A stretch of 64,000 bases of DNA, taken from Longimicrobiales bacterium. Its GTDB lineage: Bacteria; Gemmatimonadota; Gemmatimonadetes; Longimicrobiales; Gaopeijiaceae. Under the pieces are notes generated by a model that saw nothing but the letters and a program-made list of their open reading frames with translations, did not search any database and was not told the origin of the DNA. The position numbers and the translations under genes are program-made. The stretch spans positions 672,001 to 736,000 of the forward strand of contig OZ241892.1 in NCBI GenBank assembly GCA_965203485.1, in the 5' to 3' direction. Within the stretch, counting starts at the first letter, position 1. Every line of letters starts with the position of its first letter. Below, piece after piece: positions 1 to 64,000 of the stretch.

Positions 1-510
1 GGACACGGCGGACGGGCGCGCCCGAACGGGACTGATGCCGGCGTTGGCCAGCCCGGAGTCGGCCGCGAAGTGCATGGAGAACTCGGTCTCGTTGCGCACC
101 AACGGAGCGGTGACGCCGACGGTGAGCCAGTCCAGCACGCCGATCTCCGCCGAGAGCGCGAGGCGCACGGCGTTCTTCTCCGCGGTCGTGGCCAGCGTGC
201 CGAGTCGCAGGACGTGCTCGCCGCCGGCGGCCCGGGCCACGGCCGCTTCGTAGTTGGCCAGCGAGGGGAACAGGCGCGTGCCCGCCGGGCCGGAGAAGTC
301 GTCGCCGAGGCTCGCTGGCCCGCCGTCTCCCGGTTCTCCGCCCGGTCCCGGCCGGTATCTGGCCCAGAAGGACGAATAGTCGGTCGAGACCCCGATTCGA
401 AGCGCGCCGCGGGCGACCAGGGGGCTGTGCGCCTCCTGTGCGGCGGCGGAGGCCCGGGCGCAACTGCTCGCGGCGAGCGAGAGGCAGAGCAGGCGGACGG
501 CCTTGGACAC
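1..510 (-). CDS. Exported/outer-membrane hypothetical protein, 5' part (runs off the left edge)
   Basis: Not in the ORF track. Manual translation from GTG at 510 gives VSKAVRLLCLSLAASSCARASAAQ (signal-peptide-like) ... AEIGVLDWLTVGVTAPLVRNETEF (amphipathic beta-strands), open to position 1. An in-frame TAA at 523-525 bounds the start. Confidence 0.65.
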   Translation of the reverse strand, partial: MSKAVRLLCLSLAASSCARASAAAQEAHSPLVARGALRIGVSTDYSSFWARYRPGPGGEPGDGGPASLGDDFSGPAGTRLFPSLANYEAAVARAAGGEHVLRLGTLATTAEKNAVRLALSAEIGVLDWLTVGVTAPLVRNETEFSMHFAADSGLANAGISPVRARPSAVS

Positions 511-23317: not shown

Positions 23318-24720
23318 GCGCCAACGAAGCTCCCGGCGGGGCGAGGACGCTGTGGGGGGGGGGGCTGGAAGGGGGACTCGCGCCGGCCATGGAGGCGCTG
23401 AACCGCTCGTTGGACGTGGACTGGCGCCTTTGGCCTCACGACGTGCGCGGCAGCCGGGCTTGGGTGCGGGGACTGGAGGGCGCGGGCGTGCTGTCGGCGG
23501 ACGAGGCTCGGCGGATGGACGAGGGACTCGAAGCGGTGGCCGAGCGGTTGCGCGGCCTTCCCGGTCCCGGGGGTCTGCCCGACGAGGACGTTCACTCGGT
23601 CGTGGAGCGGTTCCTCACCGAGACGGTCGGGCCGCTGGGCGGCAAGCTTCACACGGGACGCTCGCGCAACGATCAGGTGGCGACCGCGTTTCGGCTCTGG
23701 GCAAAGGACGCGATCCGGACCCTGCGGGACTTGAGCGGGCGCGCAGTCGTGGCCCTCCGCGACCGGGCGCGGGAGACGGGCGACCTGCTGATTCCCGGCT
23801 ATACGCACCTCCAGCGGGCGCAGCCCGTGCCCGTCGCGCACTGGCTCCTGTCGCGGGCGTGGCCCTTGCTGCGCGACGCGGAGGCGCTTGCGGCGGTGGA
23901 GCGCGAATGCGACGTGATGCCGCTGGGGTCCGGCGCCCTCGCTGGATGCCCGTTCGACGTGGACCGCGAGGCGCTGGCCAGGGAGCTGGGATTCGCGGCG
24001 GTCTCCGAGAATTCGGTGGACGCCGTGTCGGACCGCGACTGGGCGGCCCGTCTGCTCTTCGCGGCGGCGCTGGCCGGCGTTCATCTCTCGCAGCTGGCCG
24101 AGGACCTCGTCGTCTTCTCGAGCGCCGAGTTCGGCTTCTTGCGGCTCGGAGACGGTTTCGCGACGGGTTCGTCGCTGATGCCTCAGAAGCGCAATCCCGA
24201 CGCAGCGGAGCTCGTGCGCGGGCGATCCGGCCGGCTCGTGGGCAACCTCGCCACGCTGCTCGTGGCGCTCAAGGGCCTGCCGACGGGCTACAACCGCGAT
24301 CTCCAGGAGGACAAGGAGGCCGTCTTCGATTCCGTGGACACGCTCGCGCTCTCGTTGCGGGTCGCGGCAGGAGCCGTGGAAAGCCTTTCGTTCTCGCGCC
24401 GCAGGGCGGCGGCCGCGCTGGACGCCGAACTGCTGGCCACGGATCTCGCCGACCATCTAGTGCGCTTGGGCGTTCCCTTCCGCGAAAGCCACCATGCCGT
24501 CGCCCGCCTCGCGCGCGCCGCCCGGGCCGAAGGCAAGAGCCTCGACGCGCTGCCGCCCGAGATGGTCCGCGCCGCGCACCCCGCGTTCGCCGAAGGCGCG
24601 CTTCCGGCGCTCGGCGCGGAAGCATCGGCGGATTCTCGGGCCGTGCGCGGCGGAACCGCGGCGACGGCGGTCGCGGCTCAGTTCGAGGCCCTGGACGCCG
24701 CCCTGGACGCGCTGGCGTAG
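23314..24720 (+). CDS. argH: Argininosuccinate lyase
   Basis: LWGG, KLHTGRSRNDQVAT, PGYTHLQRAQP, GSSLMPQKRNPD, YNRDLQEDK. TTG start overlaps the argG TGA. Confidence 0.96.
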   Translation: MSANEAPGGARTLWGGGLEGGLAPAMEALNRSLDVDWRLWPHDVRGSRAWVRGLEGAGVLSADEARRMDEGLEAVAERLRGLPGPGGLPDEDVHSVVERFLTETVGPLGGKLHTGRSRNDQVATAFRLWAKDAIRTLRDLSGRAVVALRDRARETGDLLIPGYTHLQRAQPVPVAHWLLSRAWPLLRDAEALAAVERECDVMPLGSGALAGCPFDVDREALARELGFAAVSENSVDAVSDRDWAARLLFAAALAGVHLSQLAEDLVVFSSAEFGFLRLGDGFATGSSLMPQKRNPDAAELVRGRSGRLVGNLATLLVALKGLPTGYNRDLQEDKEAVFDSVDTLALSLRVAAGAVESLSFSRRRAAAALDAELLATDLADHLVRLGVPFRESHHAVARLARAARAEGKSLDALPPEMVRAAHPAFAEGALPALGAEASADSRAVRGGTAATAVAAQFEALDAALDALA

Positions 24721-39148: not shown

Positions 39149-39328
39149 TCGTCCTGGTCTCCTTGCTTCTTCGCCCTGCGCGCCGACGCGGCGCAATGCG
39201 CGGCTGCCGACTCGCGTTCCACCGCCCAATCTAATGCACATGGGAGCGGGTCTCCAGAATTCGCGGAGCGTTCCGTACCGTAGCGGACGTTCGGCCGTCG
39301 CCGTCGGCCGAGCCCCCCCGGTCTTGCG

Positions 39329-39550
39329 GCCGTTCGGACGCTGGAGCCAGGGCGCCGGCGCCGGCCAGCGCTTCAACGCCGGCGCGCGCTTCTCGCTGCT
39401 CGGCCAGTCCGCGCCGGGCGCGCACTCGCACGCCACAGGCCACGCCGAGAGCCCGCGATTCATCCTCCACCTCTACGGCGAGCACGCCTCCTCGCCGCCC
39501 GAACCCCGCAACGCCGCCTCGGCCTAGCAGGCGCCATCCAGCTCAGGTAG
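39329..39550 (+). pseudogene. Decayed copy of the last ~75 codons of the giant adhesin gene (direct repeat of 53645-53882)
   Basis: Identical blocks of 55 and 38 bp; PFGRWSQ...RFILHLYGEHASS; a short deletion, a 1-nt frameshift and a CTGG-to-CTAG change; ends in the same CAGCTCAGGTAG. Confidence 0.92.
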
Positions 39551-39832
39551 AAGCCCCGGCACGGCCAGCTCGATTCGGTGGGCCGCTCGCCCGTCCGCGT
39601 CCAGCCCGGCTCCTGAATCGCCTCGCGCCGAGCGAGGCCTGGAGTTGCCACGGCATGGTGGACGTTGACCGAGCGGGGATATCCGTTATTCTTCTCGTAT
39701 CGTCGAGCGCGCCGCCGGTCGCCGCCGGACAGAGGGATGGTTGAGGGAGCCGAGAGCGAGATGAAACCCGAACCCTGGTTGCCTACGTCACGAAGCGCTC
39801 GGCCCCGGCAAGGGGCGAGCCACGTCAGGAAT

Positions 39833-39852
39833 CCCCCCCCCCCCCCCCCCCC
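39833..39852 (+). repeat. Poly-C tract (C20) in the adhesin leader
   Basis: GGAAT-C20-TTGCG; the paralogous leader has C18. Confidence 0.95.
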
Positions 39853-39987
39853 TTGCGTTTGGCCAGTCGAAGCGTTCGGCTCCCACCCGATGGGGTAGGG
39901 AGGGCCGCGCGACCGGGGCGCGCCCGGCCTGGCGTCCACGAGCGCCGGCTCCCGACCCGCCGCTTCACGTCCGCGTAGCGCGGCTGG

Positions 39988-40015
39988 TTGACCAAGGTGC
40001 CTTTGTTTTTATCTT
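39988..40015 (+). promoter_or_regulatory. Putative sigma70 promoter for the adhesin
   Basis: TTGACC-N16-TATCTT in an AT-rich patch. A second TTGACC-N16-TATTCT lies at 39665-39692. Confidence 0.45.
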
Positions 40016-40109
40016 TCCCCCGTTCGTCGCGTGCGGCAAGTCTTCACGTTCCTGGCCGGACACCGTGGATTTGTGCTTGCCGTCATCTTCTTCTCGAATG
40101 AGGCAGAGC

Positions 40110-43100
40110 ATGAGTACGCATGAGGCCCGTAAAGCTGAGACGAGGCCGACGCCCCTCCGGCCGACTGGCTGGCTGGCCCGAGCGATGCCGGTAGCGCGAA
40201 CCTCGCTCGCGGCCCTCGGCCTGCTGGCGGCGTTCGGGACCACGGCGCCGGCGCCGCTGAGCGCCCAAACCACGCCGCCGGCGGTGAGCGGCGTGGGCAT
40301 CACGAGCGACGCGGGGAGCGACAGCACGTACGTGGAGGGCGACACGATCAAGGTTTTGGTAGTGTTCAGCGAGTCGGTGGACGTGACGGGCACGCCGCAG
40401 TTGGCGCTGACGGTGGACACGATGACGCGTCAGGCGAGCTACGTGTCGGGCACGGGGAACGATTCGTTGGCGTTCCACTACGTGTTGCCGGTGACGTCGA
40501 CGGACCGGGACGCTGACGGGATCAGCATAGCGGCGAGCGCGCTGGCTCTGAACGGCGGTACGATTCGGCGGGCGGGCGGTACGGTGGATGCGGTTCTGGG
40601 GTTGGGCGCCCACGCGGTCAGCAACGACAGGAACCATCAAGTTGCGCGTAGGCCGGCGATGGCGCCGATACATTTCCAGACGAATCCGGCGAGCGACCAG
40701 ACGTTCGCAGCGGGGGAGGTGGTCCATCTGCGGATCACGTGGACCGACCGCGTGGACAAGCCGAACTGGCAGGCGATGAGGTTGGCGATCGAGATTGGCG
40801 AGGACACGGTGACGGCGATTCCGCACCAGCAGAACCCTTGGGCGGTATGGTTTCGGTACACGGTGACGGAGGCCGACTTGGACGAGAACGGGATAAGCTT
40901 GCCGGAGAACGCGTTGACGAACATCGGCAGCGTCAGGCTCGAGGGCACGTTGGTCGAGGCGGACAACGATCTTTCGGCCGTGACATTGACGGATACGGCG
41001 ACTCACAAGGTGAACGGCGCGAAGGCGGTGCCTCACGTGACGAACACGACGATTGAGAGCGATGCGGGGAACGACAGCACGTACGCGCGCGGCGACGTGA
41101 TCGAGATCGGCATCTGGTTCAACGAGGACGTGGACGTGACGGGCTCGCCGCGCCTGGCGATGGCGGTCGGGACGGAGACGCGGCAAGCGGTCTATTTTGC
41201 GGGGACGGGCGGCAGTTCGCTGGTGTTCCGGTACGAGGTTGGGCCTGGGGATGTGGACACGAACGGGATCAGCATCGGGTCGGAGGCGTTGACGTTGAAC
41301 GGCGGGACGATCCGGCGGGCGGGGTCGGCGACGGTGAACGCGTACCTGGGCTTGCGGGTCCACAGGGTCGCCGACGCCGACACGCACAAGGTGGACGGTA
41401 CGGCGGGGCCGCCTGCCGTGACGAAGGTGCTGGTCACGAGCGATGCGGGTACGGACAGCACGTATGCGGCGAACGACACGGTACAAGTAGCGGTGGTGTT
41501 CAACGAGAGCGTGGACGTGACGGGCACGCCGCGAGTGGCGCTGGGGATTGGTTTGCAGACGCGGCAGGCGAGCTACGCGGGCGGTACGGGGACGGATTCG
41601 CTGACGTTCCGGTACGTGGTGGCGAGCGGCGACGCGGACGCGGACGGGTTGAGCATCGGGGCGAGCGCTTTGGCTTTGAACGGGGGCACGATCAAGCGGG
41701 CGGGCGCGGCGGTGGACGCGACGCTGTCGACGGCGAACTTCGTTGTTGTGAACGCGGCGGCGCACAAGGTACTGGGCTCGGGCGCGACTATCGTGACGGG
41801 CACGTCGTTCGCGAGCGACGCGGGGACGGACAGCATCTACGTGGAGGGGGACACGGTCGCGGTGGAAGTCGTGTTCAACCAAGCGGTGGACGTGACGGGG
41901 ACGCCGCAGCTGGCGCTGGTTCTGTCGGCGGTGCGGCAGGCGAGCTACGTGTCTGGGACGGGCACGACAACGCTGACGTTCAAGTACGTCGTGGCGGCGG
42001 GGGACTCTGACACGAACGGGATCAGCTACGGGCGGAATGCGCTGACGCTGAACGGCGGTACGATCAGAAGGGCGGGCACGGCGGTGGACGTGTACTTGAG
42101 CTTGTGGACTCACGTCGCGACGGACGACAGAGCTCATCGCGTGTGGGAGATACCGAAGGTATCGAGCGTTTCGATTCCCAGCAGCGCGGGCGCCGACCAG
42201 ACGTGGGCGAGCGGCGACATCATCGACTTCTTCGTGGTGTTCGACCGGGCCATAGCGGCGTCGGTCACGGCGTCGTCGGGCATACATCTGACGATTGGGG
42301 AGGACGTCCGCTCGGGTTACATACACAACGTGAACACTGGCACGAGAACCTTGCACTGGCGGTACGTTCCGGTGCAGGCCGACTTGGACGCGGACGGGCT
42401 GAGCGTCGACAGCGTCACGTTTGGCGGGAGCGACTACGTCAGGACGGCTGGGGCGCCGGCGGGCGCGGCGAACGCCAACTTGGACTTCACGCCGATCGCG
42501 AACGCTTCGGCGCACAAGGTGAACGGCGCACAGGCGGTGCCTCACGTGACGGGCACGGTGGTAGCGAGCGACGCGGGGAACGACAGCACGTATGCTGAGG
42601 GCGACACGATCGAGGTCGGGCTGGTGTTCAGCGAGAACGTGGACGTGACGGGGGCGCCGCGTCTGGCATTGGGGATTGGGACGGCGACGCGGCAGGCGAG
42701 GTACGTTGCGGGGACGGGCGGCGATTCGCTGGTGTTCCGGTACGTTGTGGGGGCTGGGGACGAGGACGCGGACGGATTGAGCGTGGGCGCGGGCGCGTTG
42801 GCGCTGGGCGCGGGCGGGACGATTCGGCGGGCGGGGTCGGCGACGGTGAACGCGTACTTGGGTTTGCGGGTTCACACGATCGCGAACGCTTCGGCGCACA
42901 AGGTGGCGCTCACGCCGCCGTCGGTGTCGGGCGTGTTCTTCGTGACGCCGGCGAACACGGGGTTGGCGTACGCGAGCACGGACAGCGTGTTCGGTCTTGC
43001 GGACGAGATACGCGCGGCGGTCAGCTTCGGCGTGGCGGTGACGGCGGCGGGCACGCCACAGCTGGCGTTGGGGATTGGCACGCAGACGCGGAGCGCTGTG

Positions 43101-46100
43101 CTGTGCGATACGACAGGAGCCAACGTGTTGGTGTTCTGCTACACGGTGGTGGCTGCGGACAGCGATTCGGACGGGATCAGCGTCGGCGCGAACGCATTGA
43201 CGTTGCCGGGCGGCGCGACGCTTCGAGCGACGGGGAGCACGACGGGCGCGAACTTGTCGTTGGCGCCGTGGAACTTCGCGAACTCGGCGTTGTTCCAGGT
43301 GGACGGTTCGAAGGAGGTGGCGCCTGGGGTGAGCGGTGTGGCGATTGCGAGCGACGCGGGTACGGATTCGACGTACCACCGGTTCGAGGCGATCCGAGTC
43401 GAGGTGGGGTTCGACCGTGCGGTGGACGTTGTGGGCACGCCGCAGCTGGCATTGGGGATCGGGGCGGCGACGCGGCAGGCGGGGTACGCGAGCGGGACGG
43501 GCACGAGCACGCTGACGTTCCAGTATTCTGTGGGGCCGTCGGACAGCGACGCGGACGGGGTGAGCATCGCAGCGAGCGCGTTGGCATTGAACGGCGGGAC
43601 GATCGAGATAGCGGGCGGCTCGGCGGCGGCGGCGCTGGGATTGGGCAGCCATGCGATTGCGAACGCGGCGGCGCACAAGGTGGCGGGCGACCGGCCGGTG
43701 GTGACGGGGGTGTCGTTGGGGTCGCCGGTGACGGGCGACGTGTTCGAGCGGGGCGACACGATCGAGGCGAGGGTGAGTTTCGGGCGGTGGGTGACGGTGA
43801 CGGGGACGCCGCAGCTGGCGCTGACGATCGGGACGGCGACGCGGCAGGCGAGCTACGCGTCTGGCAGCGGGTCGGGGTCGCTGGCGTTCCGGTACGTGGT
43901 GGCGTCCGGGGACGCTGACGCGGACGGGTTGAGCGTGGGCGCGGGCGCATTGGGCTTGAACGGAGGCACGATTGCGGTGACGGGCGGCACGGCGAACGCA
44001 TTGCTGGAGTTGCAGACGTGGCACGTGATCACGAACAGCGCCGGGCACAAGGTGGACGGCGGGACGTTGACGGCGGCGTCGGTGAGCGGTGTGTCGGTGG
44101 CGAGCGTTCCGTCGGGCGGCGACACGTACTTGCTGGGCGACACGATCGACGTGGCGGTGGCGTTCACGCGGCTGGTGGCGGTGACGGGGACGCCGCAGCT
44201 GGCGATCGGGATCGGGAGTTCGACGCGGCAGGCGTCGTACGCGAGCGGGACGGGGACGGACACGCTGTTGTTCCGGTACGCTGTGGTGGCTGCGGACGCG
44301 GACACGAACGGGTTGAGCATCGCGGCGGGTGCGCTGGGGCTGAACGGCGGCACGATAGCGGACGCGCGCGACGTTTCGGTTGCTGCGGGTCTGGGTTTGG
44401 GATCGAGCGCGGTTTCGAACAGTACGGGCCACAAGGTGGACGGGAGCCGCGTGCGGCCGGCTCGCGTGCTGTCGGTGACGTTGAACACCGTTCCGCCGAC
44501 GAGCCAATGGAATCAGTTCGTGGCGGGCGACTGGATGCAGGTGACGGTCGAGTTCAGCGCGGCGGTGGACGTTGTGGGCACGCCGCAGGTGGCGATCGTG
44601 ATCGGGACGGCGACTAGGCAGGCGGCGTACGCGAGCGGGACGGGGACGGCGACGCTGGTTTTTCGTTATCAGATGCACGGCTACGACCCGAGGGACGACG
44701 ACGGGATCGGCGTGGCGCGCGATGCTCTGGCTCTGAACGGCGGCACGATCCGGCGTGCGGGGAGCAGCGATGCGGCGTTGCTGGACTTTGGGCGCGCCTA
44801 CACGGGCACGGCGACGAATCCGGCGCACAGGGCGGGCGTGAGCGGGATTGCGGTGAGCAGTCCGGGTTCGGGTGGCACGTACGGTGTGGGCGAGACGATC
44901 GAGGTGACGGTGTCGTTGAGCCACACGGCCGTCCTGGTCAGCGGCGCGGGGCCGCAGTTGGCGCTGGGGATCGGGACGCAGACGCGGCAGGCGTCGATGG
45001 TGCTCGGGGGCGGCAACACCTACAACCCGCTGAGGTTCCGTTACGTGGTACAGGCGGCGGACGCTGACGCGGACGGGATCAGCATCGCGGCGAACGCGAT
45101 CACGGGCGGCAACGTGCAGTCGCAGCATTCGGTGCGGCCGCCGTTTTGGGGGTTGGGGCGGTTGGCGATTGCGAACGACGGGATGCGCAAGGTGGACGGG
45201 AGCCTTGGTGCGGTGGTGAGCGGTCTGTCGATCGGGTCGCCGCCGTCGGGCGACACGTTCGAGCGAGGCGACGCGATCGAGGTGGCGGTGGCGTTCAACC
45301 GGGCGGTGGACGTTGCGGGGACGCCGCAGCTGGCGCTGGCGGTCGACACGCTGACCAGGCAGGCGTCGTACGCGAGCGGGACGGGGACGGACACGCTGGT
45401 GTTCCGGTACGTGGTGGTGGCTGCGGACGCGGACACGCTGGGGATCAGCATAGCGGCGAACGCTTTGAGCTTGAACGGCGGGACGATACGGCAGGCGGGC
45501 GGGACGACGAACGCGGTGCTGGGGTTGGGCGGCCACGCGGTGACGAACAGCTCGGGCCACAAGGTGGACGGCGGGACGCTGACGGCGGCGTCGGTGAGCG
45601 GGGTGGCGATCACGAGCGCGCCGTCGAGCGACAGCACGTACGGACGCACGGAGCGGATCGAGGTGGCCGTCGAGTTCGTGCGCGCGGTGACGGTGACGGG
45701 GACGCCGCAGCTGGCGCTGGGGATCGGGACGGCGACGCGGCAGGCGGCGTACGCGAGCGGGAGCGGGACGCGGACGCTCGTGTTCCGGTACGTGGTGGTG
45801 GCTGCGGACGCGGACTCGACGGGGATCAGCATCGGAGCGAGCGCGCTGGCGTTGAACGGCGGCGCGATCAACGACGCGCGCGACGGCACGGCGGCGGCGA
45901 GCCTGGGTTTGGGCAGCCATGCGGTCGCGAACGATCGTTCGCACAAGGTGGACGGGAGCCTGGGCCCGCCGGGGGTGACGGGGTTGTCGATCGGTTCGCC
46001 TGCGGTGGACACGACGTTCGAGCGCGGCGAGACGATCGAGGTGTCGGTGGTGTTCAGCCGGCCGGTGGACGTGGGGGGGACGCCGCAACTGGCGCTGGGC

Positions 46101-49100
46101 ATCGGGAGCGCGACCAGGCAGGCGGACTACGCGAGCGGGACGGGGACGGACACGCTGGTGTTCCGGTACGTGGTGGTGGCGGCCGACGCGGACGCGGACG
46201 GGATCAGCATAGCGGCGGGCGCGTTGACGTTGAACGGCGGCACGATCCGGCTGGCCGGCGGGACGCTGGACGCGATGCGGGACTTGGGGGCGAACGCGGT
46301 AGTGAACAGCGCGGGCCACACGGTTGCGGGCGGGACGTTCACGACGCCTTCGGTGAGCGCGGTGACGGTGTCGAGCGCGCCAGCGAGCGCGAGCACGTAC
46401 GAGCTGGGCGAGTCTATCGAGGTGAAGGTGGCGTTCAGCCGTCCGGTGGCGGTGACGGGGACGCCGCGACTGGCTTTGGGGATCGGGACGGCGACGCGCC
46501 AGGCGGACTACGATTCGGCGTCGAGCAGTGCGGACACGCTGGTGTTCGGGTACGCGGTCCGGCCTGCGGACGTGGACGCCGACGGGCTCAGCATCGCGGC
46601 GGGCGCGCTGGCGTTGAACGGCGGGACGATCAACGACGCGCGTCCGGGCGCGACGGCTGCGAGCCTGGATTTGGGGTCGAACGCGATCACGAACGCTGCG
46701 TCGCACAAGGTGAACGGCGGGCTGGGCCCGCCCGGGGTGACGGGGTTGGCGGTGGCGCCGCCGCCGGCGGGCGCGGTGTTCGAGCGCGGCGACACGATTG
46801 TTGCGACGGTGCGGTTCAACAAGGCGGTGGACGTGACGGGCACGCCGCAGCTGGCGCTGGGGATCGGCACGCAGACGCGGCAGGCGGCGTACGCATCGGG
46901 CACGGGCACGGCGGCGCTGGTGTTCCGGTACGTGGTGGCGACGGCGGACGTGGACTTGGACGGGTTGAGCGTTGGCGCGAGCGCACTGGCTCTGAACGGC
47001 GGCACGATCGACGTGTCGGGCGGGACGACGGACGCGTTGCTGAGCCTGGAGCGCCATGCGTTCGAGAACTTCCTGGTGGTGAACGGCGGGCTGTTCACGG
47101 CGTCGTCGGCGAGCGGCGTGTCGATATCGAGCAGTCCAGCGAGCGACAGCACGTACGGTCGCACGGAGCGGATCGAGGTCGAGGTGACGTTCGACCGCGC
47201 GGTGGCAGTGACGGGCACGCCGCAGCTGGCGTTGACGATCGGCGACTCGACGCGCCAGGCGAGCTACGCGAGCGGCACGGGCACGAAGACGCTGGCGTTC
47301 GGCTACGTGGTGGTGGCTGCGGACGCGGACGCGAACGGTTTGAGCGTCGGGCCGGCCGCGCTGGCGTTGAACGGCGGTGCGATCGACGACGCGCGCGACG
47401 CGAGCGAGGCTGCGGGCCTGGGCCTGGGGAGCCATGCGATATCGAACGCTGCGGCGCACAAGGTGAACGGGAGCCTGGGGCCGCCCGGCGTGACGGGCGT
47501 GACGCTCGGCTCGCCGCCGGTGGGCACGACGTTCGAGCGGGGCGACACGATCGTGGCGGCGCTGGCGTTCAACCGGGCGGTGGACGTGACGGGCGCGCCG
47601 CAGCTGGCGCTGGGGATCGGGAGCGCGACGAAGCAGGCGGTCTACGCGAGCGGGAGCGGCACGTCGTCGCTCGAGTTCCGGTACGTGGTGGTGACGGCGG
47701 ACGTGGACGCCGACGGGTTGAGCGTCGCGACGACGGCGCTGGGATTGAACGGCGGTACGGTTCGGCTGGCCGGCGGGACGCTGGACGCGACGCTGGGGTT
47801 GGGCACGCACGCGATATCGAACAGCGCGGGCCACAAGGTTGCGGGCGGGACGTTCACGGCGTCGGGCGTGACGGGCGTGGCGGTCGCGAGCAGTCCTGCG
47901 AGCGGCGCGACGTACGGACTGGGCGAGCGGATCGAGGTTCGGGTGACGTTTGCGCGCGCTGTGGCGGTGACGGGCACGCCGCAGCTGGCGCTGGGGATCG
48001 GCGCTGCGACGCGGCAGGCGGACTACGCGGGCGGAACGGGCACGCCGCAGCTGGCGTTCGGCTACGTGGTCGTCGCGGGCGACGCCGACTCCGACGGGCT
48101 CAGCATCGGCGCGAGCGCTTTGGCGCTGAACGGCGGGACGATCGCGGACGGACGCGACGGTTCGACGGCGGCGGCGCTGGGCCTGGGGTCGAGCGCGGTC
48201 GCGGACGCTGCGGGCCACCGCGTGGACGCGACGCGCGGCCCGCCGGGGGTGATGGGCGTGACGATCGGGTCGCCGCAGGTGGGCGACACGTTCGAGCGCG
48301 GCGACACGGTCGAGGTCGAGGTCGAGTTCAACAAGCCGGTGGCGGTGACGGGCGCGCCGCAGCTGGCGCTGGGCATCGGCGCGGCGACGAAGCAGGCGGG
48401 CTACGCGGGCGGGAGCGGGACGGCTGCGCTGGCGTTCCGGTACGTGGTCGTGTCCGCCGACGCGGACGCCGACGGGCTCAGCGTCGCGGCGGGCGCGTTG
48501 GCGCTGAACGGCGGCACGATCAAGGTGTCGGGCGGCACGGCCGACGCTTTGCTGGGCCTGGGCGCGCACGCGGTGGCGAACAGCGCGGGCCACAAGGTGG
48601 CGGGCGGGACGTTCACGGCGTCGTCGCCGAGCGCGGCGTCGGTGACGAGCGCGCCGGCGAGCGGCGACACGTACGGGTTGAGCGAGCGCATCGAGGTACG
48701 GGTGACGTTCGCGCGCCCGGTCGTCGTGACGGGCGCGCCGCAGCTGGCGCTGGGCATCGGCGCTGCGACGAAGCAGGCGGGCTACGCTGGCGGCAGCGGG
48801 ACGCGCGCGCTGGTGTTCGGCTACGTGGTCGCATCCGCGGACGCGGACGCCGACGGGATCAGCGTGGGCGCGAGCGCGCTGTCGTTGAACGGCGGCGCGA
48901 TAGCCGACGCGCGCGACGGGTCGACGGCGGCCGGCCTGGGCCTGGGCTCGAGCGCGATTGCGAACGCTGGCGCGCACAAGGTGGACGGCAGCGTCGAGGG
49001 CGCGCCGGCGGTTGCGGGCGCTCGGCTGGCGAGCGCGCCGTCGGGCGGCGGGTCGTACGGACTGGGCGAGGAGATACGGGTGGCGGTGCGCTTCGACCGC

Positions 49101-52100
49101 GCGGTGGCGGTGACGGGCACGCCCGAGCTGGCGCTCGGCATCGGCGCTGCGACGCGGCAGGCGGGCTACGCGAGCGGGAGCGGCACGTCCGAGCTCGAGT
49201 TCGCGTACGTGGTTCAGGCGGCGGACGCCGACAGGGACGGGATCAGCGTTGGCGCGGGCGCGCTGTCGCTGAGCGGCGGGACGCTGGTGGTCGCGGGCGG
49301 CACGGCGGCGGCGGTTCTGTCGCTGGGCAGCCACGCGATAGTGAACGCGAGCGGCCACGCCGTCGCCGGCACGCTCGAGGCGGCGCCGGTCGTGACGGGC
49401 GCGCGGCTGGTATCGTCGCCTGCGAACGGGAGCGCGTACGGGTTGAGCGAGCGGATCGCCGTCGCGCTGGCGTTCAGCCGTCCGGTCGACGTTGCGGGCG
49501 CGCCGCAGCTGGCGCTGGGCATCGGGAGCGCGACGCGGCAGGCGGGCTACGCGAGCGGGAGCGGCACGGCCGAGCTGGTGTTCGGCTACGTCGTCGCGGG
49601 CGGCGACGCCGACGCCGACGGCGTGAGCGTCGCGGCGGGCGCGCTGGCCTTGAACGGCGGGACGATCGTGATCGCGGGCGGGCGCGTGGCGGCGGTGCTG
49701 TCGCTGGGCACGCACGCGCTGTCGAACGTCGCGGGCCACCTGGTGGACGGGAGCGCCGAGACGGCGCCTGCCGTGGCGGGCGTGACGCTGGCGAGCGCGC
49801 CGATCGGCGGCGGGCGCTACGAGCTGGGCGAGGAGATCCGCGTGCACGTGCGCTTCGACCGCGCCGTCGCCGTGACGGGCTCGCCGCAGCTGGCGCTGAC
49901 GATCGGCGCGCAGACGCGCACGGCGCGCTTCGTGCGCGTCGTCGGCTACGGCGCCGCCGCGCGCGCGGGCTGGGCCGGCGTCGCGGCGGGCTATGCAGGC
50001 GCGCGCTGGGCCGGCGGGTCGGCGGGCGGCGCAGGCGGTTCCGCCGGCGCGTTGGGCGCGACGCAGGGCGCGGCGCTCGAGTTCGCGTACGCCGTTCAGG
50101 CGGCGGACGCCGACGCGGACGGATTGAGCGTGGGCGCGGGCGCGCTGTCGCTGAACGGCGGCGCGATCACGCTGCTGGGCGGCACGGCGGCGGCTGGACT
50201 GTCGCTGGGCGGCCACGCGCTGACGAACGTCGGCGGCCACTTGGTGGACGGCAGCGTCGTGTCGCCGCCTGCGGTCGCGGGCGTCGAAGCGAGCCGTCCG
50301 CAGTCGGGCGGCCGGTGGCGCGCCGGCCAGACGATCGAGATCGCCGTCGTGTTCGACCGGCCGGTGAGCGTGACGGGCGGCCCGCGTCTGGCGCTGGCGA
50401 TGGGCACGCGCACGGTTCACGCCGCGCTGGCGTCGGCGAGCGGGCGGCGCGTCGAGTTCGCGTACGAGGTGCGTCCTCACGACCGCGCGCCGAACGGGAT
50501 CGCGCTGGCCGCCGGCGCGCTGGACGCGAGCGGCGCCGCGATCGTGTCGGCCGCCGACGGTTCGACGCCGGCCGCGCTGTCGCTGGGCAGCCATGCGTTC
50601 GCAAGCGATCCGACGCGCAGGGTCGAGGGCGGCGGCGGCGAGCCGGAGCCGGGGCGGCCGCCGAAGTTCGGGGCCGAGTCGTACGCGTTCGAGCTGGCCG
50701 AGAACGTGGCGGGCGCCGTCGTCGTGGGCGCCGTGAGCGCCGTGGACCCGGACGAGGGCGACGAGGTGTACTACCGGCTGCGCGAGGGCGGCGGCGGCCT
50801 GTTCGAGGTGGACGAGACGAGCGGCGAGGTCAGCTACGTCGGCGCGGGCGAAGACTACGAAGCCGGCCCGCGCGAGCACGCGCTCGTCGTGTCGGCCGCC
50901 GACGTCGGCGGCCTCGCGTCGACCGTCCGCGTGACGGTGAAGGTGACGAACGCGAACGAGGCGCCGGCGTTCGAGCGGGCGAGCTGGACGTTCGAGCTGG
51001 CCGAGAACGCGGCCGGACCGATAGTGCTGGGCACGGTCAGCGCGACCGACCCGGACGAGGGCGAGGCGCTGTCGTACAGCCTCGTCTCGGGCGGCGGCGG
51101 CCTGTTCGAGCTGGACGCTGCGAGCGGCGCCGTGCGCTACGTCGGCGCCGGCGAAGACTACGAGACGGGCCCGCGCGAGCACGCGCTGGCCGTCGCCGTC
51201 GCCGACGCGGGCGGGCTGCGAGCGGCGGCCGGCGTCGTGATAGCCGTCGCCGACGCCGACGAGGCGCCCGTGTTCGAGCGGGCGAGCTGGACGTTCGAGC
51301 TGGCCGAGAACGCGGCCGGGCCCATAGTGCTGGGCACGGTGTCGGCGACCGACCCGGACGAGGGCGAGGCGCTGTCGTACAGCCTCGTCTCGGGCGGCGG
51401 CGGCCTGTTCGAGCTGGACGCTGCGAGCGGCGCCGTGCGCTACGTCGGCGCCGGCGAGGACTACGAGACGGGCCCGCGCGAGCACGCGCTCGTCGTCGCC
51501 GCGACGGGCGCCGACGGCCTCGCCGCGCAGGCGGCCGTCGTCGTGACGGTCGCCGACGTGAACGAGGCGCCCGTGTTCGAGCAGGCGAGCTGGACGTTCG
51601 AGCTGGCCGAGAACGCTGCCGGCCCGCTCGCCGTCGGCGCCGTCGCCGCCGCCGACGAGGACGAGGGCGACGTGCTGTCGTACAGCCTCGTCTCGGGCGG
51701 CGGCGGCCTGTTCGAGCTGGACGCTGCGAGCGGCGCCGTGCGCTACGTCGGCGCCGGCGAGGACTACGAGACGGGCCCGCGCGAGCACGCGCTCGTCGTC
51801 GCCGCGACGGACAGGGGCGGCCTGGCGGCGACGGCGAACGCGACCGTCGTCGTGACCGACGTCAACGAGGCGCCCGAAGCGACCGCGCAGATCGCCGTCG
51901 CGGCGCTCGACGCGCACGGCGCGGCCGTGCAGGAGACGCTGGACGCGTACTTCCGGGACCCGGACGGCGACGCGCTCGCGTACGCCGCCGAGTCGTCGGA
52001 CACGGCGGTGGCGGCGGCGAGCGTGGCGGGCGGCGTGCTGACCATCCGGCCGTTCGCGATCGGCACGGCGAGCGTGACCGTGACGGCGACCGATCCCGGC

Positions 52101-53882
52101 GGGCTGGCCGCCGAGCAGACCGTCGCCGTCGTCGTCGAGGCGTCGCGCTCCGAGCGAGCGCGCGTGCTCGAGGGCGCGCTGGCCGCGTTCGGGCGCTCGC
52201 TCGGCGCCGAGGCCGTCGACGTGATCGGCGGCAGGCTCGGGATCGAGTCGGCCGGCGGACTCGGACGCTCGCACCTCCAGCTCGGAGGACGCTCCATCGC
52301 CTGCGACGGCGGCGCGACAGGCGGCGGCGCGTGCGGCTGGCGGGCGCTCGCGCGCTCGGCGTCCGGCCTGCTCGGCGTCCAAGTCGCGTTGCCGACCACC
52401 GGCGGTCCGCGCGGCGCGCAGTCCGCCGGCGCGCTCGACCCGGCCGCGCTGCTCTTCGGCGGCCCGGGCGTTGCAACCGGTGGCGCCGGCGGGCTTGGCG
52501 GACTCGGCATGGGCGGCGACTACCAGGGCCAGCAGGAGCCCGCGCCGCCCACGCCGGGCGGCGTGACGCTCAACCCGCTGTCGGGCGGCGACCTGCTCGA
52601 GCGCAGCTCGTTCCAGCTCTCGCTCGGCGGCGGCGCGGCCAGCGACTCGGGCGCGTTCGGCGCGCAGGACGCCGCCGGCCTGCGTCCCGGCTGGACCGTC
52701 TGGGGCCGCGCCGGCATGGGCGGCTACGAGGGCCGCCCGGCCGACGGCCTGCGCTTCGGCGGCGGGCGCGCTCGCTCGGCGCACCTCGGCGCCGACTACC
52801 GCTTCGCGTCCGGCCTGCTCGTCGGCGTCGCCGGCGCGCGCAGCAGCTTCGAGACCGAGTTCGAGAGCGCCGTCAACGGCGCGGGCTCCGTCGCCGCGAG
52901 CCTGACCAGCGTGCATCCCTACGTGCACTGGTCGCCCACCGGAGGACTCGGCCTCTGGGCCCTCGCAGGCGCAGGAACCGGCGACGCGACGCTCGACGAA
53001 GCCGCCGGCGGCCGGTTCGGCGCCGACATCGCGATGCTGATGGGCGCGCTCGGTGCGCGCCGCGAGCTGGCCGGCGGCATCGCGCTCAAGGCCGACGCGT
53101 TCTCCGTGCGCGTCCGCTCCGACGACGCGGCCGACCTGGCAGGCGTGACCGCGCGCGCGCACCGCGTCCGGCTCGCGCCCGAAGTCGCGAAGACCTGGGC
53201 GCTCGGCGGCGAAGCGTCGCTGCGCACGCGGCTCGAGCTCGGCGCGCGCCTCGACGCCGGCGACGCCGAGACCGGGTTGGGCGCCGAGGCCGGCGGCGAA
53301 GCGTCGTTCGACCACGCGCCCACCGGCCTGTCCGTCGCGATGCGCGGGCGCGCGCTGCTCGCGCACCAGGCCGAGGGCTTGCGCGAATGGGGCGCCGGCG
53401 TCTCGTTCCGGCTCCAGCCCGGCGGGACCGCCGAAGACGGCCTGTCGCTCTCCGTCGAGCCGGCATGGGGCGCCGCCACCGGCGCCACCGGCGAACTCTG
53501 GCGCCAAGGCCCCGCCGCCATCGGTCCCGCCGCCCAGGCGGCGCACCCGGTTGCGCACCAGGCCGCGCCGTCCGGCTGGGCGCCCGGACGCATGGCCATG
53601 GAACTCGGCTGGGGCGTCGCGCTCGACAACGGCGCCACGATCACGCCCTTCGGACGCTGGAGCCAGGACGCAGGCGCCGGCCAGCGCTTCAACGCCGGCG
53701 CGCGCTTCTCGCTGCTCGGCCAGTCCGTCCAGTCCAGCACGGGCACCGGCGCCCACTCGCCCGCCGCCGGCCCCGCCGAGAGCCTGCGCTTCATCCTCCA
53801 CCTCTACGGCGAGCACGCCTCCTCGCCCCTCGAACCCCCGCAACGCCGCCTCGGCCTGGCAGGCGCCATCCAGCTCAGGTAG
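40110..53882 (+). CDS. Giant autotransporter-type adhesin (~4,590 aa): signal peptide, 27 Ig-like repeats, 4 cadherin repeats, 1 cadherin-like Ig domain, C-terminal beta-barrel
   Basis: Signal ending APLSA-Q; ~125-aa repeats (V.F...V.VTGTPQLAL.IG..TRQA.YASG.G...L.F.Y.V...D.D.DG.S....L.LNGG.I); cadherin motifs F.LAEN, ATDPDEG, DYE, DVNEAP; helix then amphipathic strands (WTVWGR, LGADYRF, HPYVHWSP). ATG 40110 follows GAGG; 40098 and 40065 are alternatives. Confidence 0.9.
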   Translation: MSTHEARKAETRPTPLRPTGWLARAMPVARTSLAALGLLAAFGTTAPAPLSAQTTPPAVSGVGITSDAGSDSTYVEGDTIKVLVVFSESVDVTGTPQLALTVDTMTRQASYVSGTGNDSLAFHYVLPVTSTDRDADGISIAASALALNGGTIRRAGGTVDAVLGLGAHAVSNDRNHQVARRPAMAPIHFQTNPASDQTFAAGEVVHLRITWTDRVDKPNWQAMRLAIEIGEDTVTAIPHQQNPWAVWFRYTVTEADLDENGISLPENALTNIGSVRLEGTLVEADNDLSAVTLTDTATHKVNGAKAVPHVTNTTIESDAGNDSTYARGDVIEIGIWFNEDVDVTGSPRLAMAVGTETRQAVYFAGTGGSSLVFRYEVGPGDVDTNGISIGSEALTLNGGTIRRAGSATVNAYLGLRVHRVADADTHKVDGTAGPPAVTKVLVTSDAGTDSTYAANDTVQVAVVFNESVDVTGTPRVALGIGLQTRQASYAGGTGTDSLTFRYVVASGDADADGLSIGASALALNGGTIKRAGAAVDATLSTANFVVVNAAAHKVLGSGATIVTGTSFASDAGTDSIYVEGDTVAVEVVFNQAVDVTGTPQLALVLSAVRQASYVSGTGTTTLTFKYVVAAGDSDTNGISYGRNALTLNGGTIRRAGTAVDVYLSLWTHVATDDRAHRVWEIPKVSSVSIPSSAGADQTWASGDIIDFFVVFDRAIAASVTASSGIHLTIGEDVRSGYIHNVNTGTRTLHWRYVPVQADLDADGLSVDSVTFGGSDYVRTAGAPAGAANANLDFTPIANASAHKVNGAQAVPHVTGTVVASDAGNDSTYAEGDTIEVGLVFSENVDVTGAPRLALGIGTATRQARYVAGTGGDSLVFRYVVGAGDEDADGLSVGAGALALGAGGTIRRAGSATVNAYLGLRVHTIANASAHKVALTPPSVSGVFFVTPANTGLAYASTDSVFGLADEIRAAVSFGVAVTAAGTPQLALGIGTQTRSAVLCDTTGANVLVFCYTVVAADSDSDGISVGANALTLPGGATLRATGSTTGANLSLAPWNFANSALFQVDGSKEVAPGVSGVAIASDAGTDSTYHRFEAIRVEVGFDRAVDVVGTPQLALGIGAATRQAGYASGTGTSTLTFQYSVGPSDSDADGVSIAASALALNGGTIEIAGGSAAAALGLGSHAIANAAAHKVAGDRPVVTGVSLGSPVTGDVFERGDTIEARVSFGRWVTVTGTPQLALTIGTATRQASYASGSGSGSLAFRYVVASGDADADGLSVGAGALGLNGGTIAVTGGTANALLELQTWHVITNSAGHKVDGGTLTAASVSGVSVASVPSGGDTYLLGDTIDVAVAFTRLVAVTGTPQLAIGIGSSTRQASYASGTGTDTLLFRYAVVAADADTNGLSIAAGALGLNGGTIADARDVSVAAGLGLGSSAVSNSTGHKVDGSRVRPARVLSVTLNTVPPTSQWNQFVAGDWMQVTVEFSAAVDVVGTPQVAIVIGTATRQAAYASGTGTATLVFRYQMHGYDPRDDDGIGVARDALALNGGTIRRAGSSDAALLDFGRAYTGTATNPAHRAGVSGIAVSSPGSGGTYGVGETIEVTVSLSHTAVLVSGAGPQLALGIGTQTRQASMVLGGGNTYNPLRFRYVVQAADADADGISIAANAITGGNVQSQHSVRPPFWGLGRLAIANDGMRKVDGSLGAVVSGLSIGSPPSGDTFERGDAIEVAVAFNRAVDVAGTPQLALAVDTLTRQASYASGTGTDTLVFRYVVVAADADTLGISIAANALSLNGGTIRQAGGTTNAVLGLGGHAVTNSSGHKVDGGTLTAASVSGVAITSAPSSDSTYGRTERIEVAVEFVRAVTVTGTPQLALGIGTATRQAAYASGSGTRTLVFRYVVVAADADSTGISIGASALALNGGAINDARDGTAAASLGLGSHAVANDRSHKVDGSLGPPGVTGLSIGSPAVDTTFERGETIEVSVVFSRPVDVGGTPQLALGIGSATRQADYASGTGTDTLVFRYVVVAADADADGISIAAGALTLNGGTIRLAGGTLDAMRDLGANAVVNSAGHTVAGGTFTTPSVSAVTVSSAPASASTYELGESIEVKVAFSRPVAVTGTPRLALGIGTATRQADYDSASSSADTLVFGYAVRPADVDADGLSIAAGALALNGGTINDARPGATAASLDLGSNAITNAASHKVNGGLGPPGVTGLAVAPPPAGAVFERGDTIVATVRFNKAVDVTGTPQLALGIGTQTRQAAYASGTGTAALVFRYVVATADVDLDGLSVGASALALNGGTIDVSGGTTDALLSLERHAFENFLVVNGGLFTASSASGVSISSSPASDSTYGRTERIEVEVTFDRAVAVTGTPQLALTIGDSTRQASYASGTGTKTLAFGYVVVAADADANGLSVGPAALALNGGAIDDARDASEAAGLGLGSHAISNAAAHKVNGSLGPPGVTGVTLGSPPVGTTFERGDTIVAALAFNRAVDVTGAPQLALGIGSATKQAVYASGSGTSSLEFRYVVVTADVDADGLSVATTALGLNGGTVRLAGGTLDATLGLGTHAISNSAGHKVAGGTFTASGVTGVAVASSPASGATYGLGERIEVRVTFARAVAVTGTPQLALGIGAATRQADYAGGTGTPQLAFGYVVVAGDADSDGLSIGASALALNGGTIADGRDGSTAAALGLGSSAVADAAGHRVDATRGPPGVMGVTIGSPQVGDTFERGDTVEVEVEFNKPVAVTGAPQLALGIGAATKQAGYAGGSGTAALAFRYVVVSADADADGLSVAAGALALNGGTIKVSGGTADALLGLGAHAVANSAGHKVAGGTFTASSPSAASVTSAPASGDTYGLSERIEVRVTFARPVVVTGAPQLALGIGAATKQAGYAGGSGTRALVFGYVVASADADADGISVGASALSLNGGAIADARDGSTAAGLGLGSSAIANAGAHKVDGSVEGAPAVAGARLASAPSGGGSYGLGEEIRVAVRFDRAVAVTGTPELALGIGAATRQAGYASGSGTSELEFAYVVQAADADRDGISVGAGALSLSGGTLVVAGGTAAAVLSLGSHAIVNASGHAVAGTLEAAPVVTGARLVSSPANGSAYGLSERIAVALAFSRPVDVAGAPQLALGIGSATRQAGYASGSGTAELVFGYVVAGGDADADGVSVAAGALALNGGTIVIAGGRVAAVLSLGTHALSNVAGHLVDGSAETAPAVAGVTLASAPIGGGRYELGEEIRVHVRFDRAVAVTGSPQLALTIGAQTRTARFVRVVGYGAAARAGWAGVAAGYAGARWAGGSAGGAGGSAGALGATQGAALEFAYAVQAADADADGLSVGAGALSLNGGAITLLGGTAAAGLSLGGHALTNVGGHLVDGSVVSPPAVAGVEASRPQSGGRWRAGQTIEIAVVFDRPVSVTGGPRLALAMGTRTVHAALASASGRRVEFAYEVRPHDRAPNGIALAAGALDASGAAIVSAADGSTPAALSLGSHAFASDPTRRVEGGGGEPEPGRPPKFGAESYAFELAENVAGAVVVGAVSAVDPDEGDEVYYRLREGGGGLFEVDETSGEVSYVGAGEDYEAGPREHALVVSAADVGGLASTVRVTVKVTNANEAPAFERASWTFELAENAAGPIVLGTVSATDPDEGEALSYSLVSGGGGLFELDAASGAVRYVGAGEDYETGPREHALAVAVADAGGLRAAAGVVIAVADADEAPVFERASWTFELAENAAGPIVLGTVSATDPDEGEALSYSLVSGGGGLFELDAASGAVRYVGAGEDYETGPREHALVVAATGADGLAAQAAVVVTVADVNEAPVFEQASWTFELAENAAGPLAVGAVAAADEDEGDVLSYSLVSGGGGLFELDAASGAVRYVGAGEDYETGPREHALVVAATDRGGLAATANATVVVTDVNEAPEATAQIAVAALDAHGAAVQETLDAYFRDPDGDALAYAAESSDTAVAAASVAGGVLTIRPFAIGTASVTVTATDPGGLAAEQTVAVVVEASRSERARVLEGALAAFGRSLGAEAVDVIGGRLGIESAGGLGRSHLQLGGRSIACDGGATGGGACGWRALARSASGLLGVQVALPTTGGPRGAQSAGALDPAALLFGGPGVATGGAGGLGGLGMGGDYQGQQEPAPPTPGGVTLNPLSGGDLLERSSFQLSLGGGAASDSGAFGAQDAAGLRPGWTVWGRAGMGGYEGRPADGLRFGGGRARSAHLGADYRFASGLLVGVAGARSSFETEFESAVNGAGSVAASLTSVHPYVHWSPTGGLGLWALAGAGTGDATLDEAAGGRFGADIAMLMGALGARRELAGGIALKADAFSVRVRSDDAADLAGVTARAHRVRLAPEVAKTWALGGEASLRTRLELGARLDAGDAETGLGAEAGGEASFDHAPTGLSVAMRGRALLAHQAEGLREWGAGVSFRLQPGGTAEDGLSLSVEPAWGAATGATGELWRQGPAAIGPAAQAAHPVAHQAAPSGWAPGRMAMELGWGVALDNGATITPFGRWSQDAGAGQRFNAGARFSLLGQSVQSSTGTGAHSPAAGPAESLRFILHLYGEHASSPLEPPQRRLGLAGAIQLR
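50960..51875 (+). repeat. Three near-identical ~300-bp cadherin-coding tandem repeats
   Basis: GCGAGCTGGACGTTCGAGCTGGCCGAGAACG...GGCCCGCGCGAGCACGCGCT recurs with ~300-nt period. Confidence 0.9.
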
Positions 53883-62860: not shown

Positions 62861-64000
62861 TTGACCAACAGCGGGGATATGCCATTTTTTTCTCGTATCG
62901 TCGAGTGCGCCGGCGGTCGCGGACGAACAGAGGGATGGTTGAGAGGAGCCGAGAGCGAGATGAACCGAACCTGGCCACCCACGTCGCGAAGCGCTCGGCC
63001 CCGGCAAGGGGCGAGCCACGTCAGGAATCCCCCCCCCCCCCCCCCCTTGCGTTTGGCCAGTCGAAGCGTTCGGCTCCCACCCGATGGGGTAGGGAGGGCC
63101 GCGCGACCGGGGCGCGCCCGGCCTGGCGTCCACGAGCGCCGGCTCCCGACCCGCCGCTTCACGTCCGCGTAGCGCGGCTGGTTGACCAAGGTGCCTTTGT
63201 TTTTATCTTTCCCCCGTTCGTCGCGTGCGGCAAGTCTTCACGTTCCTGGCCGGACACCGTGGATTTGTGCTTGCCGTCATCTTCTTCTCGAATGAGGCAG
63301 AGCATGAGTACGCATGAGGCCCGTAAAGCTGAGACGAGGCCGACGCCCCTCCGGCCGACTGGCTGGCTGGCCCGAGCGATGCCGGTAGCGCGAACCTCGC
63401 TCGCGGCCCTCGGCCTGCTGGCGGCGTTCGGGACCACGGCGCCGGCGCCGCTGAGCGCCCAAACCACGCCGCCGGCGGTGAGCGGCGTGGGCATCACGAG
63501 CGACGCGGGGAGCGACAGCACGTACGTGGAGGGCGACACGATCAAGGTTTTGGTAGTGTTCAGCGAGTCGGTGGACGTGACGGGCACGCCGCAGTTGGCG
63601 CTGACGGTGGACACGATGACGCGTCAGGCGAGCTACGTGTCGGGCACGGGGAACGATTCGTTGGCGTTCCACTACGTGTTGCCGGTGACGTCGACGGACC
63701 GGGACGCTGACGGGATCAGCATAGCGGCGAGCGCGCTGGCTCTGAACGGCGGTACGATTCGGCGGGCGGGCGGTACGGTGGATGCGGTTCTGGGGTTGGG
63801 CGCCCACGCGGTCAGCAACGACAGGAACCATCAAGTTGCGCGTAGGCCGGCGATGGCGCCGATACATTTCCAGACGAATCCGGCGAGCGACCAGACGTTC
63901 GCAGCGGGGGAGGTGGTCCATCTGCGGATCACGTGGACCGACCGCGTGGACAAGCCGAACTGGCAGGCGATGAGGTTGGCGATCGAGATTGGCGAGGACA
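62861..64000 (+). repeat. Long direct repeat, copy 2 (adhesin leader with C18 tract at 63029-63046 plus 5' coding region); continues past the window
   Basis: Matches 39665-40806. Confidence 0.95.
63304..64000 (+). CDS. Second giant adhesin paralog, 5' end (runs off the right edge)
   Basis: No differences from 40110-40806 seen by eye (signal peptide, repeat 1, start of repeat 2). Confidence 0.88.
   Translation, partial: MSTHEARKAETRPTPLRPTGWLARAMPVARTSLAALGLLAAFGTTAPAPLSAQTTPPAVSGVGITSDAGSDSTYVEGDTIKVLVVFSESVDVTGTPQLALTVDTMTRQASYVSGTGNDSLAFHYVLPVTSTDRDADGISIAASALALNGGTIRRAGGTVDAVLGLGAHAVSNDRNHQVARRPAMAPIHFQTNPASDQTFAAGEVVHLRITWTDRVDKPNWQAMRLAIEIGED

Follow-up and report, generated by a model that had tools for sequence, protein, structure and literature searches.

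Long C/G tracts ahead of giant adhesin genes in a Longimicrobiales genome, and a duplicated leader in which the tract may be bypassed

The window considered here is a 64,000-nt stretch of the 3.56-Mb, single-contig genome of a Longimicrobiales bacterium of the Gemmatimonadota (GenBank assembly GCA_965203485.1, contig OZ241892.1, positions 672,001–736,000), which carries two copies of the leader of a giant adhesin gene, each with a long run of cytosines, C20 in copy 1 and C18 in copy 2. Together with many similar runs elsewhere in the genome, these tracts probably constitute a known kind of system, slipped-strand contingency, in a new lineage. The run of the window pair is tentatively read, at a little under an even chance and from its sequence context, as a genuine contingency repeat that has been displaced from the start codon and bypassed by a second promoter-like site (P2) and a downstream start, ATG 40110, with its own Shine-Dalgarno (SD) sequence. 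As such, the run would likely at most tune the adhesin of the pair rather than gate it. The original prediction for this locus centered on a conserved upstream open reading frame (uORF) that fuses with the adhesin only at 3n+1 C's; this is the weaker part of the finding. The principal features, in window coordinates, are as follows (G000 denotes the genome of the window, G001 a congener, and L-numbers fetched loci):

40110..53882, + strand: copy 1 of the giant adhesin gene (4590 aa if started at ATG 40110; SD energy -5.6 kcal/mol)
63304..64000, + strand: start of giant adhesin gene, copy 2, which runs on to G000:749076
39833-39852, + strand: C20 tract, copy 1
63029-63046, + strand: C18 tract, copy 2
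39761..39898, + strand: uORF of the original prediction, copy 1 (45 codons at C20; SD energy -7.0 kcal/mol)
62960..63172, + strand: uORF of the original prediction, copy 2 (70 codons at C18; SD energy -7.6 kcal/mol)
39665..39692, + strand: P1, sigma-70-like promoter candidate TTGACC-16-TATTCT
62861..62888, + strand: counterpart of P1 in copy 2, its -10 element degenerate (TTGACC-16-CATTTT), missed by the promoter scan
39988..40015, + strand: P2, a second sigma-70-like promoter candidate (TTGACC-16-TATCTT), which follows the tract
63182..63209, + strand: P2 in copy 2, identical to copy 1

Long C/G tracts across the genome and at adhesin starts

The genome has 42 G/C runs of 14–30 nt, none of 12–13 nt and no A/T run longer than 8, and the run spectrum is bimodal, such that the tracts exceed chance. 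A tract lies at most 400 nt upstream of 9 of the 12 open reading frames (ORFs) of at least 3000 aa, as against 13 of 2420 other genes, a comparison that uses a rough gene caller and counts paralogs even though they are related. Ten tracts are flanked on either side by coding frames, and four of these are in frame, near the third expected of random switching. By Pfam, they fall in five methyltransferase genes (Eco57I, N6_Mtase or N6_N4_Mtase, mostly with G on the sense strand, and three with a homologous tract in a congener), two SGNH/AlgX-like genes, one arylsulfotransferase gene and two unassigned genes, while other tracts head genes for a polysaccharide deacetylase, TonB-dependent receptors and GDSL-like proteins, as well as rpsA and mutS. 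There is also a preference for start codons: of the 79 tracts left after de-duplication of 91, 24 have an ATG at most 18 nt upstream when the C strand is read, compared with 8 when the G strand is read and a background of 13–15% (p 5e-4). These placements suggest that the 42 runs likely act as slippage-driven on/off switches.

The tracts recur in relatives. Two same-genus, single-contig genomes have 31 and 11 of them, and 7 of the 42 G000 tracts have a flank-homologous counterpart among the 96 relative tracts compared, always at another length (22/16, 25/27, 16/21, 15/18, 27/23/16, 17 and 23/14). Tracts at homologous sites in independent genomes rule out artefact for the tract system as such. 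Across the class, C16 is present in 112 of 301 genomes, three of which (with 81, 80 and 45) exceed the 39 of G000, with some places looking artefact-like; long runs in fragmented relatives are often at contig ends or clustered (e.g., 31 runs, mostly at contig ends, in G165). This, together with the fact that a 20-mer can be off by 2 nt through homopolymer error alone, is what an origin of the long runs, or of the length difference in the window, in sequencing or assembly would have in its favor. Against it, beyond the homologous sites, stand the contigs of four sequencing runs in Logan (two samples of one study, with three runs possibly from the source sample), which span the tract. Relative to C20, the matches listed for run X2 include contigs with -2 C (depth 160), -1 C (depth 120) and +1 C (depth 75), and those for X3 contigs with -2 C (depth 30) and +1 C (depth 12), so that C18 appears separately in both; X1 and X4 have no tract-length variant among the matches listed. 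Artefact is accordingly very improbable. The tally of tract length that had been proposed across samples thus went part of the way: lengths of 18, 19 and 21 are seen as contigs, unphased to copy, and the C19 contigs of X2 are neither assignable to a copy nor separable from stutter. Among the matches listed, no substitution occurs between 39791 and 40202. In X4 only copy-2-type upstream sequence is found, at depth 156 versus 493 downstream; depth here is not copy number, and the flank of copy 1 may be uncovered. Three runs labelled as sponge metagenomes share only 5–6% of words, which is no evidence of habitat.

The adhesin leaders themselves are where the tracts are most regular. Seventeen tract-bearing leaders were compared, 15 of them outside the window (G000:2790494, L222 and L049 were left out), with tracts of 11–30 nt heading repeat proteins of 1700–13000 aa in about ten paralogs. 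In 14 of the 15, a start codon lies 3–19 nt before the tract and in the remaining one at 33 nt; in the window pair the nearest start is 69–72 nt upstream. Of these start-proximal leaders 13 of 14 can fuse with the adhesin frame at one tract length (L067 counted), and four are fused as assembled. SD energies, computed against the genome's own 16S end (random-site median -3.2 kcal/mol; median of 122 confident starts -6.0), differ between the two kinds of start: the signal-peptide Met of the 14 tract-bearing paralogs has no SD (median -3.1), and the pre-tract starts have one (median -5.9). Tract-less adhesin leaders have a candidate start in 13 of 14 cases, with a best-SD median of -9.3 that is biased by being the best of several candidates. 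On this layout, the short-leader paralogs are likely classical frameshift switches, and the view that the window tract is of the slipped-strand type finds support in a family-wide set of apparently such tracts at adhesin starts.

A third, translationally coupled state possibly exists in these paralogs. In 13 of the 14 start-proximal leaders, an in-frame Met is accompanied by an off-frame stop at -3 to +8 (TGATG, ATGA, or TAG 7 nt on), and as assembled six are in the stop-on-Met state and four end elsewhere. The chance background of such stop/Met overlaps is 0.32–0.47 per locus and the cases trace to perhaps 3–4 origins, and the coupled state is therefore conjectural.

Several further observations touch the family and the set of runs. 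Adhesin paralogs share internal blocks of 8–10 kb at 95–98% identity with different ends (G000:C1:714488-724313 versus 1854877-1845047; 1067743-1075969 versus 1190363-1198579), which points to ongoing gene conversion or shuffling. Some adhesin genes are split internally by frameshift away from long runs (G000:C1:1477524-1508857, and L067 at about +520 after the tract), which may be assembly error or a second break. The largest family member, of 13,359 aa (G000:C1:2971339-3011415), has a sense-strand G22 6 nt after its ATG, out of frame as assembled. Within the window, the only run of at least 8 beyond C20 and C18 is a G11 at 23354-23364, an intermediate-length run near the start of a rough gene caller's ORF at 23314-24720. 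The C lies on the presumed leading strand in 28 of the 42 runs (GC-skew extremes at 1411997 and 3219558). A tandem array of ~925-nt units at G000:C1:2327773-2332623 (L143) holds eight runs of 20–27 nt, six of them G runs directly before an ATG-containing stretch, with no Pfam match in the one frame scanned. The longest tract seen, C39 at L057:1497 (G001:C1:3136365), lies inside a gene, and the bases after it were read by eye as what we take to be methyltransferase motif I. Finally, in front of mutS (PF01624, PF05188), the C20 at G000:C1:2516940-2516959 (L146:1501-1520) directly adjoins a -35/-10-like pair that closes with TATTCT; this could be a mismatch-repair promoter tuned by tract length, which would then govern how fast every tract switches.

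The displaced tract of the window pair

In the adhesin of copy 1, a unit of 381 nt is repeated about 12 times; it also has four cadherin repeats (PF00028) and an autotransporter-like C-terminus. The latter has no Pfam match; in the ESM Atlas its first hit scores 0.98, with 212 of 256 features and a place in an autotransporter cluster, at a recognition of 2045 that is below the 2300 mark, and the putative barrel matches two loci of a Gemmatimonadota metagenome-assembled genome at 53% identity. ATG 40110 is in frame and 25 residues ahead of Met 40185 of the putative signal peptide, an extension of the size seen in paralogs; a basic-hydrophobic-A-x-A/Q pattern, read by eye, follows from Met 40185 in all of them. 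The two loci of the window form a single duplicate of 14,367 nt (99.76% identity): over the first ~120 nt the copies differ at 12 substituted and 6 gapped positions, then by the 2 nt of the tract, after which 8,662 bases are identical. Since both belong to one duplicate, their agreement beyond the tract says nothing about conservation.

What sets the pair apart from the short-leader paralogs is the stretch after the tract. In its upstream part, the window leader aligns with the paralog G000:1562790, and immediately behind the tract its matches are 1250183 and 1062050; about 290 nt following the tract are absent from the short leaders and contain a hairpin, a DCC1-like piece, P2 and new start codons. 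That a promoter-like motif lies downstream of the tract, already noted as a caveat, is confirmed in P2 at 39988-40015. P1 and P2 are among only four genome-wide sites of the form TTGAC[CG]-16..18-TAT[CT][CT]T; the looser motif TTGAC..TAnnnT is non-coding at 60 of 72 sites and lies within 250 nt of a same-strand start at 26 of 72, compared with 3 of 34 for the reversed control. The tracts are ~140 nt past P1 and ~135 nt before P2, within or abutting neither. Downstream of P2, both "ON" layouts of the family are present without a tract: ATG 40110 with its SD, and a 24-codon ORF at 40120..40194 with the geometry of the coupled state in the paralogs. With the run ~135 nt upstream of P2 and ~260 nt upstream of an SD-bearing start, it follows that the adhesin would likely be made whatever the C count. 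The off-frame stops of the pair, at +43 and +123, are far from any Met (+245, +257 and +332), and translational coupling is thus unavailable to its tract.

Such a layout could have arisen from an ancestral leader of the short type, with start codon, tract, short linker and signal peptide in succession. Added DNA (the antisense DCC1-like scrap, P2 and the new start) would have displaced the tract; the start codon next to it would have been lost, the paralog 1562790 having an ATG 3 nt before its tract where the pair has AGG at the aligned place; and recent gene conversion or duplication would have spread the result to two loci. Candidate promoter P2 and candidate start 40110 would then yield the adhesin regardless of tract length, and the run could do no more than alter what the upstream promoter P1 adds. 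Four observations weigh against this scenario of displacement and bypass. The uORF start favored by the original prediction has a better SD in both copies than does ATG 40110; compared with paralog 1250183, the extra 291 nt keep the frame and contain no stop, with 1562790 reading the same stretch in another frame; both copies have retained long tracts, for which there is no explanation if the tracts are idle; and the enrichment of ATGs before C runs is absent in two single-contig genomes of other genera (4/25, p 0.54).

The alternative that draws on these points is translation from ATG 39761 or 62960 on the P1 transcript, in which C(3n+1), e.g., C19, would be the ON (or high) setting and the two copies as assembled would be OFF. 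Its arithmetic is sound: the tracts, upstream ATGs, stops and 3n+1 rule were all exactly reproduced from the sequence. The two ATGs lie 72 and 69 nt ahead of the tract, so that it begins at a codon boundary in both, with three 1-base indels between the copies that come to a net -3 and preserve frame (a 1-in-3 chance); the stops are TAG 39896-39898 at C20 and TAG 63170-63172 at C18; and the third frame runs for 81 codons without a stop to ATG 40098, such that n mod 3 = 1 fuses. The SDs of these ATGs (-7.0 and -7.6 kcal/mol) are credible against the confident-start median, the start-proximal leaders mostly fuse in just this way, a C19 contig is present in X2, and EF-P is encoded in the genome. 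The word "only" in the rule holds for ATG 39761/62960 and fails for copy 2 at large, where other upstream starts are already in the adhesin frame at C18 (ATG 62935, a GTG at -124 and a GTG at -235), though ATG 62935 is without a usable SD (-3.2 kcal/mol). The proposal that the two paralogs sit in different ON/OFF states does not survive, because both copies are out of frame for the ATG in question and hence in the same state under the model itself.

Conservation of the uORF is not supported. The homologous leader of 1562790 lacks the ATG, the copies differ at the N-terminus of the uORF, and a 36-nt antisense lgt piece lies inside it. When frame conservation was looked at in other genomic copies, the only paralog that shares the post-tract stretch, 1062050—the closest architectural twin, with hairpin and DCC1-like stretch read in another frame—proved to have a stop in the connecting frame, so no tract length can fuse it. 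The openness of the frame is what chance could give, as had been cautioned: stop-free windows make up 22–38% across three controls, namely 4811/12666 (38%) intergenic windows of 71 codons, 4093/12114 (34%) of 81 codons, and 22% of 5000 shuffles, the intergenic set deriving from the rough gene caller and possibly including missed genes. Part of the open frame is a shadow, being in codon register with the antisense DCC1-like piece at its 3' end. The coding score of the connecting frame is negative (-0.58 per codon), a weak test given that the paralog-like stretch 40098-40184 also scores -0.49. Fusion at C19 would place 141 residues before the signal peptide, versus tens in short-leader paralogs; P2 and the SD-bearing ATG 40110 offer a bypass; and P1 is degenerate in copy 2. 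The fusion gate nevertheless keeps some weight, because the SD of its ATG is genuine, the frame across the added DNA is preserved when compared with one of the paralogs, and long tracts persist; we regard it as improbable without being negligible. A reading of the connecting frame as the ancestral coding frame fits 1250183 but not 1562790 and was not used as support.

Other features of the leader and further explanations

Around the tract, the leader is a patchwork of captured DNA, with the following additional features in copy 1:

39324..39560, + strand: remnant of another adhesin paralog's 3' end and trailer (84–94% to adhesin gene 3' ends)
39634..39664, strand unassigned: lone terminal-repeat-like end of a 1.35-kb repeated element, directly adjoining P1
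39791..39826, - strand: antisense lgt piece, 36 nt, 97% identical to the chromosomal lgt (PF01790; E 1.6e-9)
39878..39906, + strand: GC-rich hairpin right after the tract
39909..39982, - strand: decayed antisense piece of a DCC1-like oxidoreductase gene (PF04134; 78–82% to G000:2832700-2832627, L069 and L070)
40120..40194, + strand: tract-less uORF of 24 codons, with its stop 7 nt past the signal-peptide ATG 40185

The adhesin remnant is one base short of intact copies at 39503 and contains a short ORF, 39324-39527. The terminal-repeat-like end has matches of 24–31 nt to both element ends at many sites, and the element is likely a putative insertion sequence. A DNA search of 30 relatives left the uORF and P2 regions unmatched, with hits to the adhesin repeats and DCC1-like scrap only; a metagenome scan with an 18-nt leader motif gave 32 loci, none homologous beyond 26–30 nt. 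The Rfam scan of the window yielded two tRNAs and nothing at the leader. In the leader sequence, no -10 box lies 16–18 nt from the TTG that follows the tract, and a promoter starting right behind the tract, as well as sigma-54 and ECF-type readings, were rejected on wrong spacing.

The nucleotide composition of the leader invites a further explanation, graded attenuation of the P1 transcript. Here, the C run and the C/U-rich stretch 39981-40097 would load Rho once the uORF ribosome leaves, and tract length would set where it stops (+43, +123 or never), so that read-through would be added atop a constant P2 output. Poly(C) is an activator of Rho, the region 39833-39890 has 33 C versus 11 G, and the genome has two rho genes, one of them in the window at 4166-5737. 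In Mycobacterium tuberculosis, Rho and translated uORFs are reported to shape conditional termination (10.1101/2022.06.01.494293). However, the pair has no conserved leader peptide, the leader scan found no intrinsic terminator downstream of the tract, and the methyltransferase tracts mostly have G on the sense strand, so that C on the mRNA is no general need. The tract is essentially unpaired in local folds at 18–20 C; a structure switch involving it was rejected, the whole leader having no more structure than shuffles (z = 0.47), which likewise speaks against attenuation. On balance attenuation is unlikely.

It may also be that the run does nothing in the pair: mutational bias would expand tolerated C runs, to be carried along by duplication. 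The C18 at G000:C1:1200221-1200238 (L137), directly behind the stop codon of the adhesin gene 1188668, where paralogs have a C run of 4–5 nt, is by its position an expansion without evident switch role; about 12 G000 tracts have no adjoining coding frame; and the patchwork leaders fit passive carriage. Set against these are the strong bias of tracts to giant surface, methyltransferase and surface-modification genes, the start-codon enrichment, the retention of tracts at homologous sites across species and the presence of both mutS and mutL. Neutrality of this kind is decidedly unlikely.

A broader synthesis, speculative and on the whole doubtful, would join these elements into a genus-wide phasome on long C14–C39 tracts. 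Its adhesin switch, in which tract length would direct ribosomes that start just before the tract, would have three states—in-frame fusion, a stop overlapping the SD-less signal-peptide ATG or 7 nt beyond it with reinitiation, and an early stop—from which the window pair would have escaped via its own promoter and start, keeping or re-evolving the uORF as a Rho-dependent dial, with the C20 in the mutS promoter perhaps tuning the switching rate.

Significance and comparison with known systems

Slipped-strand contingency systems have been described mainly from pathogens and gut commensals. In a literature search that covered few subscription papers, nothing was found on phase variation in Gemmatimonadota, homopolymer phase variation in sponge symbionts or repeat-length control of translational coupling; in PMC10469786 there is no mention of phase variation, homopolymer, adhesin or autotransporter. 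The 42 tracts on giant adhesins, methyltransferases and surface-modification genes point to heavy bet-hedging of both surface and methylome in an uncultured lineage, and annotated starts and pseudogene calls are unreliable in such genomes. The paralog family may be seen as a natural series—tract-less, fused, coupled, stopped and bypassed—suited to a reporter study of phase variation via translational coupling and of escape from the switch.

By the usual marks of a simple sequence repeat switch, the pair has a mononucleotide repeat far above background that differs in length between otherwise identical copies; its tract does not separate the signal peptide from the sole usable start, a placement to which the short-leader paralogs come much closer. 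Promoter-tract phase variation is known from the C-stretch of Bordetella fim. Its layout resembles that of G000:2790494 and L222 of G001, whose tracts abut TTGACA, and of G000:2029191 and the G000:2516940 tract before mutS, which abut a -35 box; it differs from the window tracts, which follow P1 by 140 nt and precede P2 by 135 nt. The TAAA repeat upstream of the nadA promoter is of the same type (PMC5472700). Of the features of leader-peptide attenuators, the pair has neither the conserved leader peptide, alternative structures and terminator nor an Rfam family. Termination-reinitiation at ATGA/TGATG overlaps is established (PMC6728339); 13 of 14 start-proximal leaders are similar, with the difference that a hypermutable run would choose whether coupling happens, a state unreachable for the tract of the pair. 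The phasevarion methyltransferases with poly-C/poly-G tracts (PMC3711429) are like the five methyltransferase tracts of G000 and unlike those of the window; in Akkermansia muciniphila, tracts longer than 8 bp occur in 17 genes (PMC3048395). The closest parallel is with nalP, ausI and autA/autB of Neisseria meningitidis, which likewise (PMC5472700) have a slipped-strand C run near an autotransporter-type start with one length in three in frame. That layout is matched by the short-leader paralogs and not by the window pair: in most paralogs there is, in addition, a signal-peptide Met that has no SD and is overlapped by an off-frame stop or followed by one 7 nt on, and the tract of the pair lies upstream of a second promoter-like site and start.

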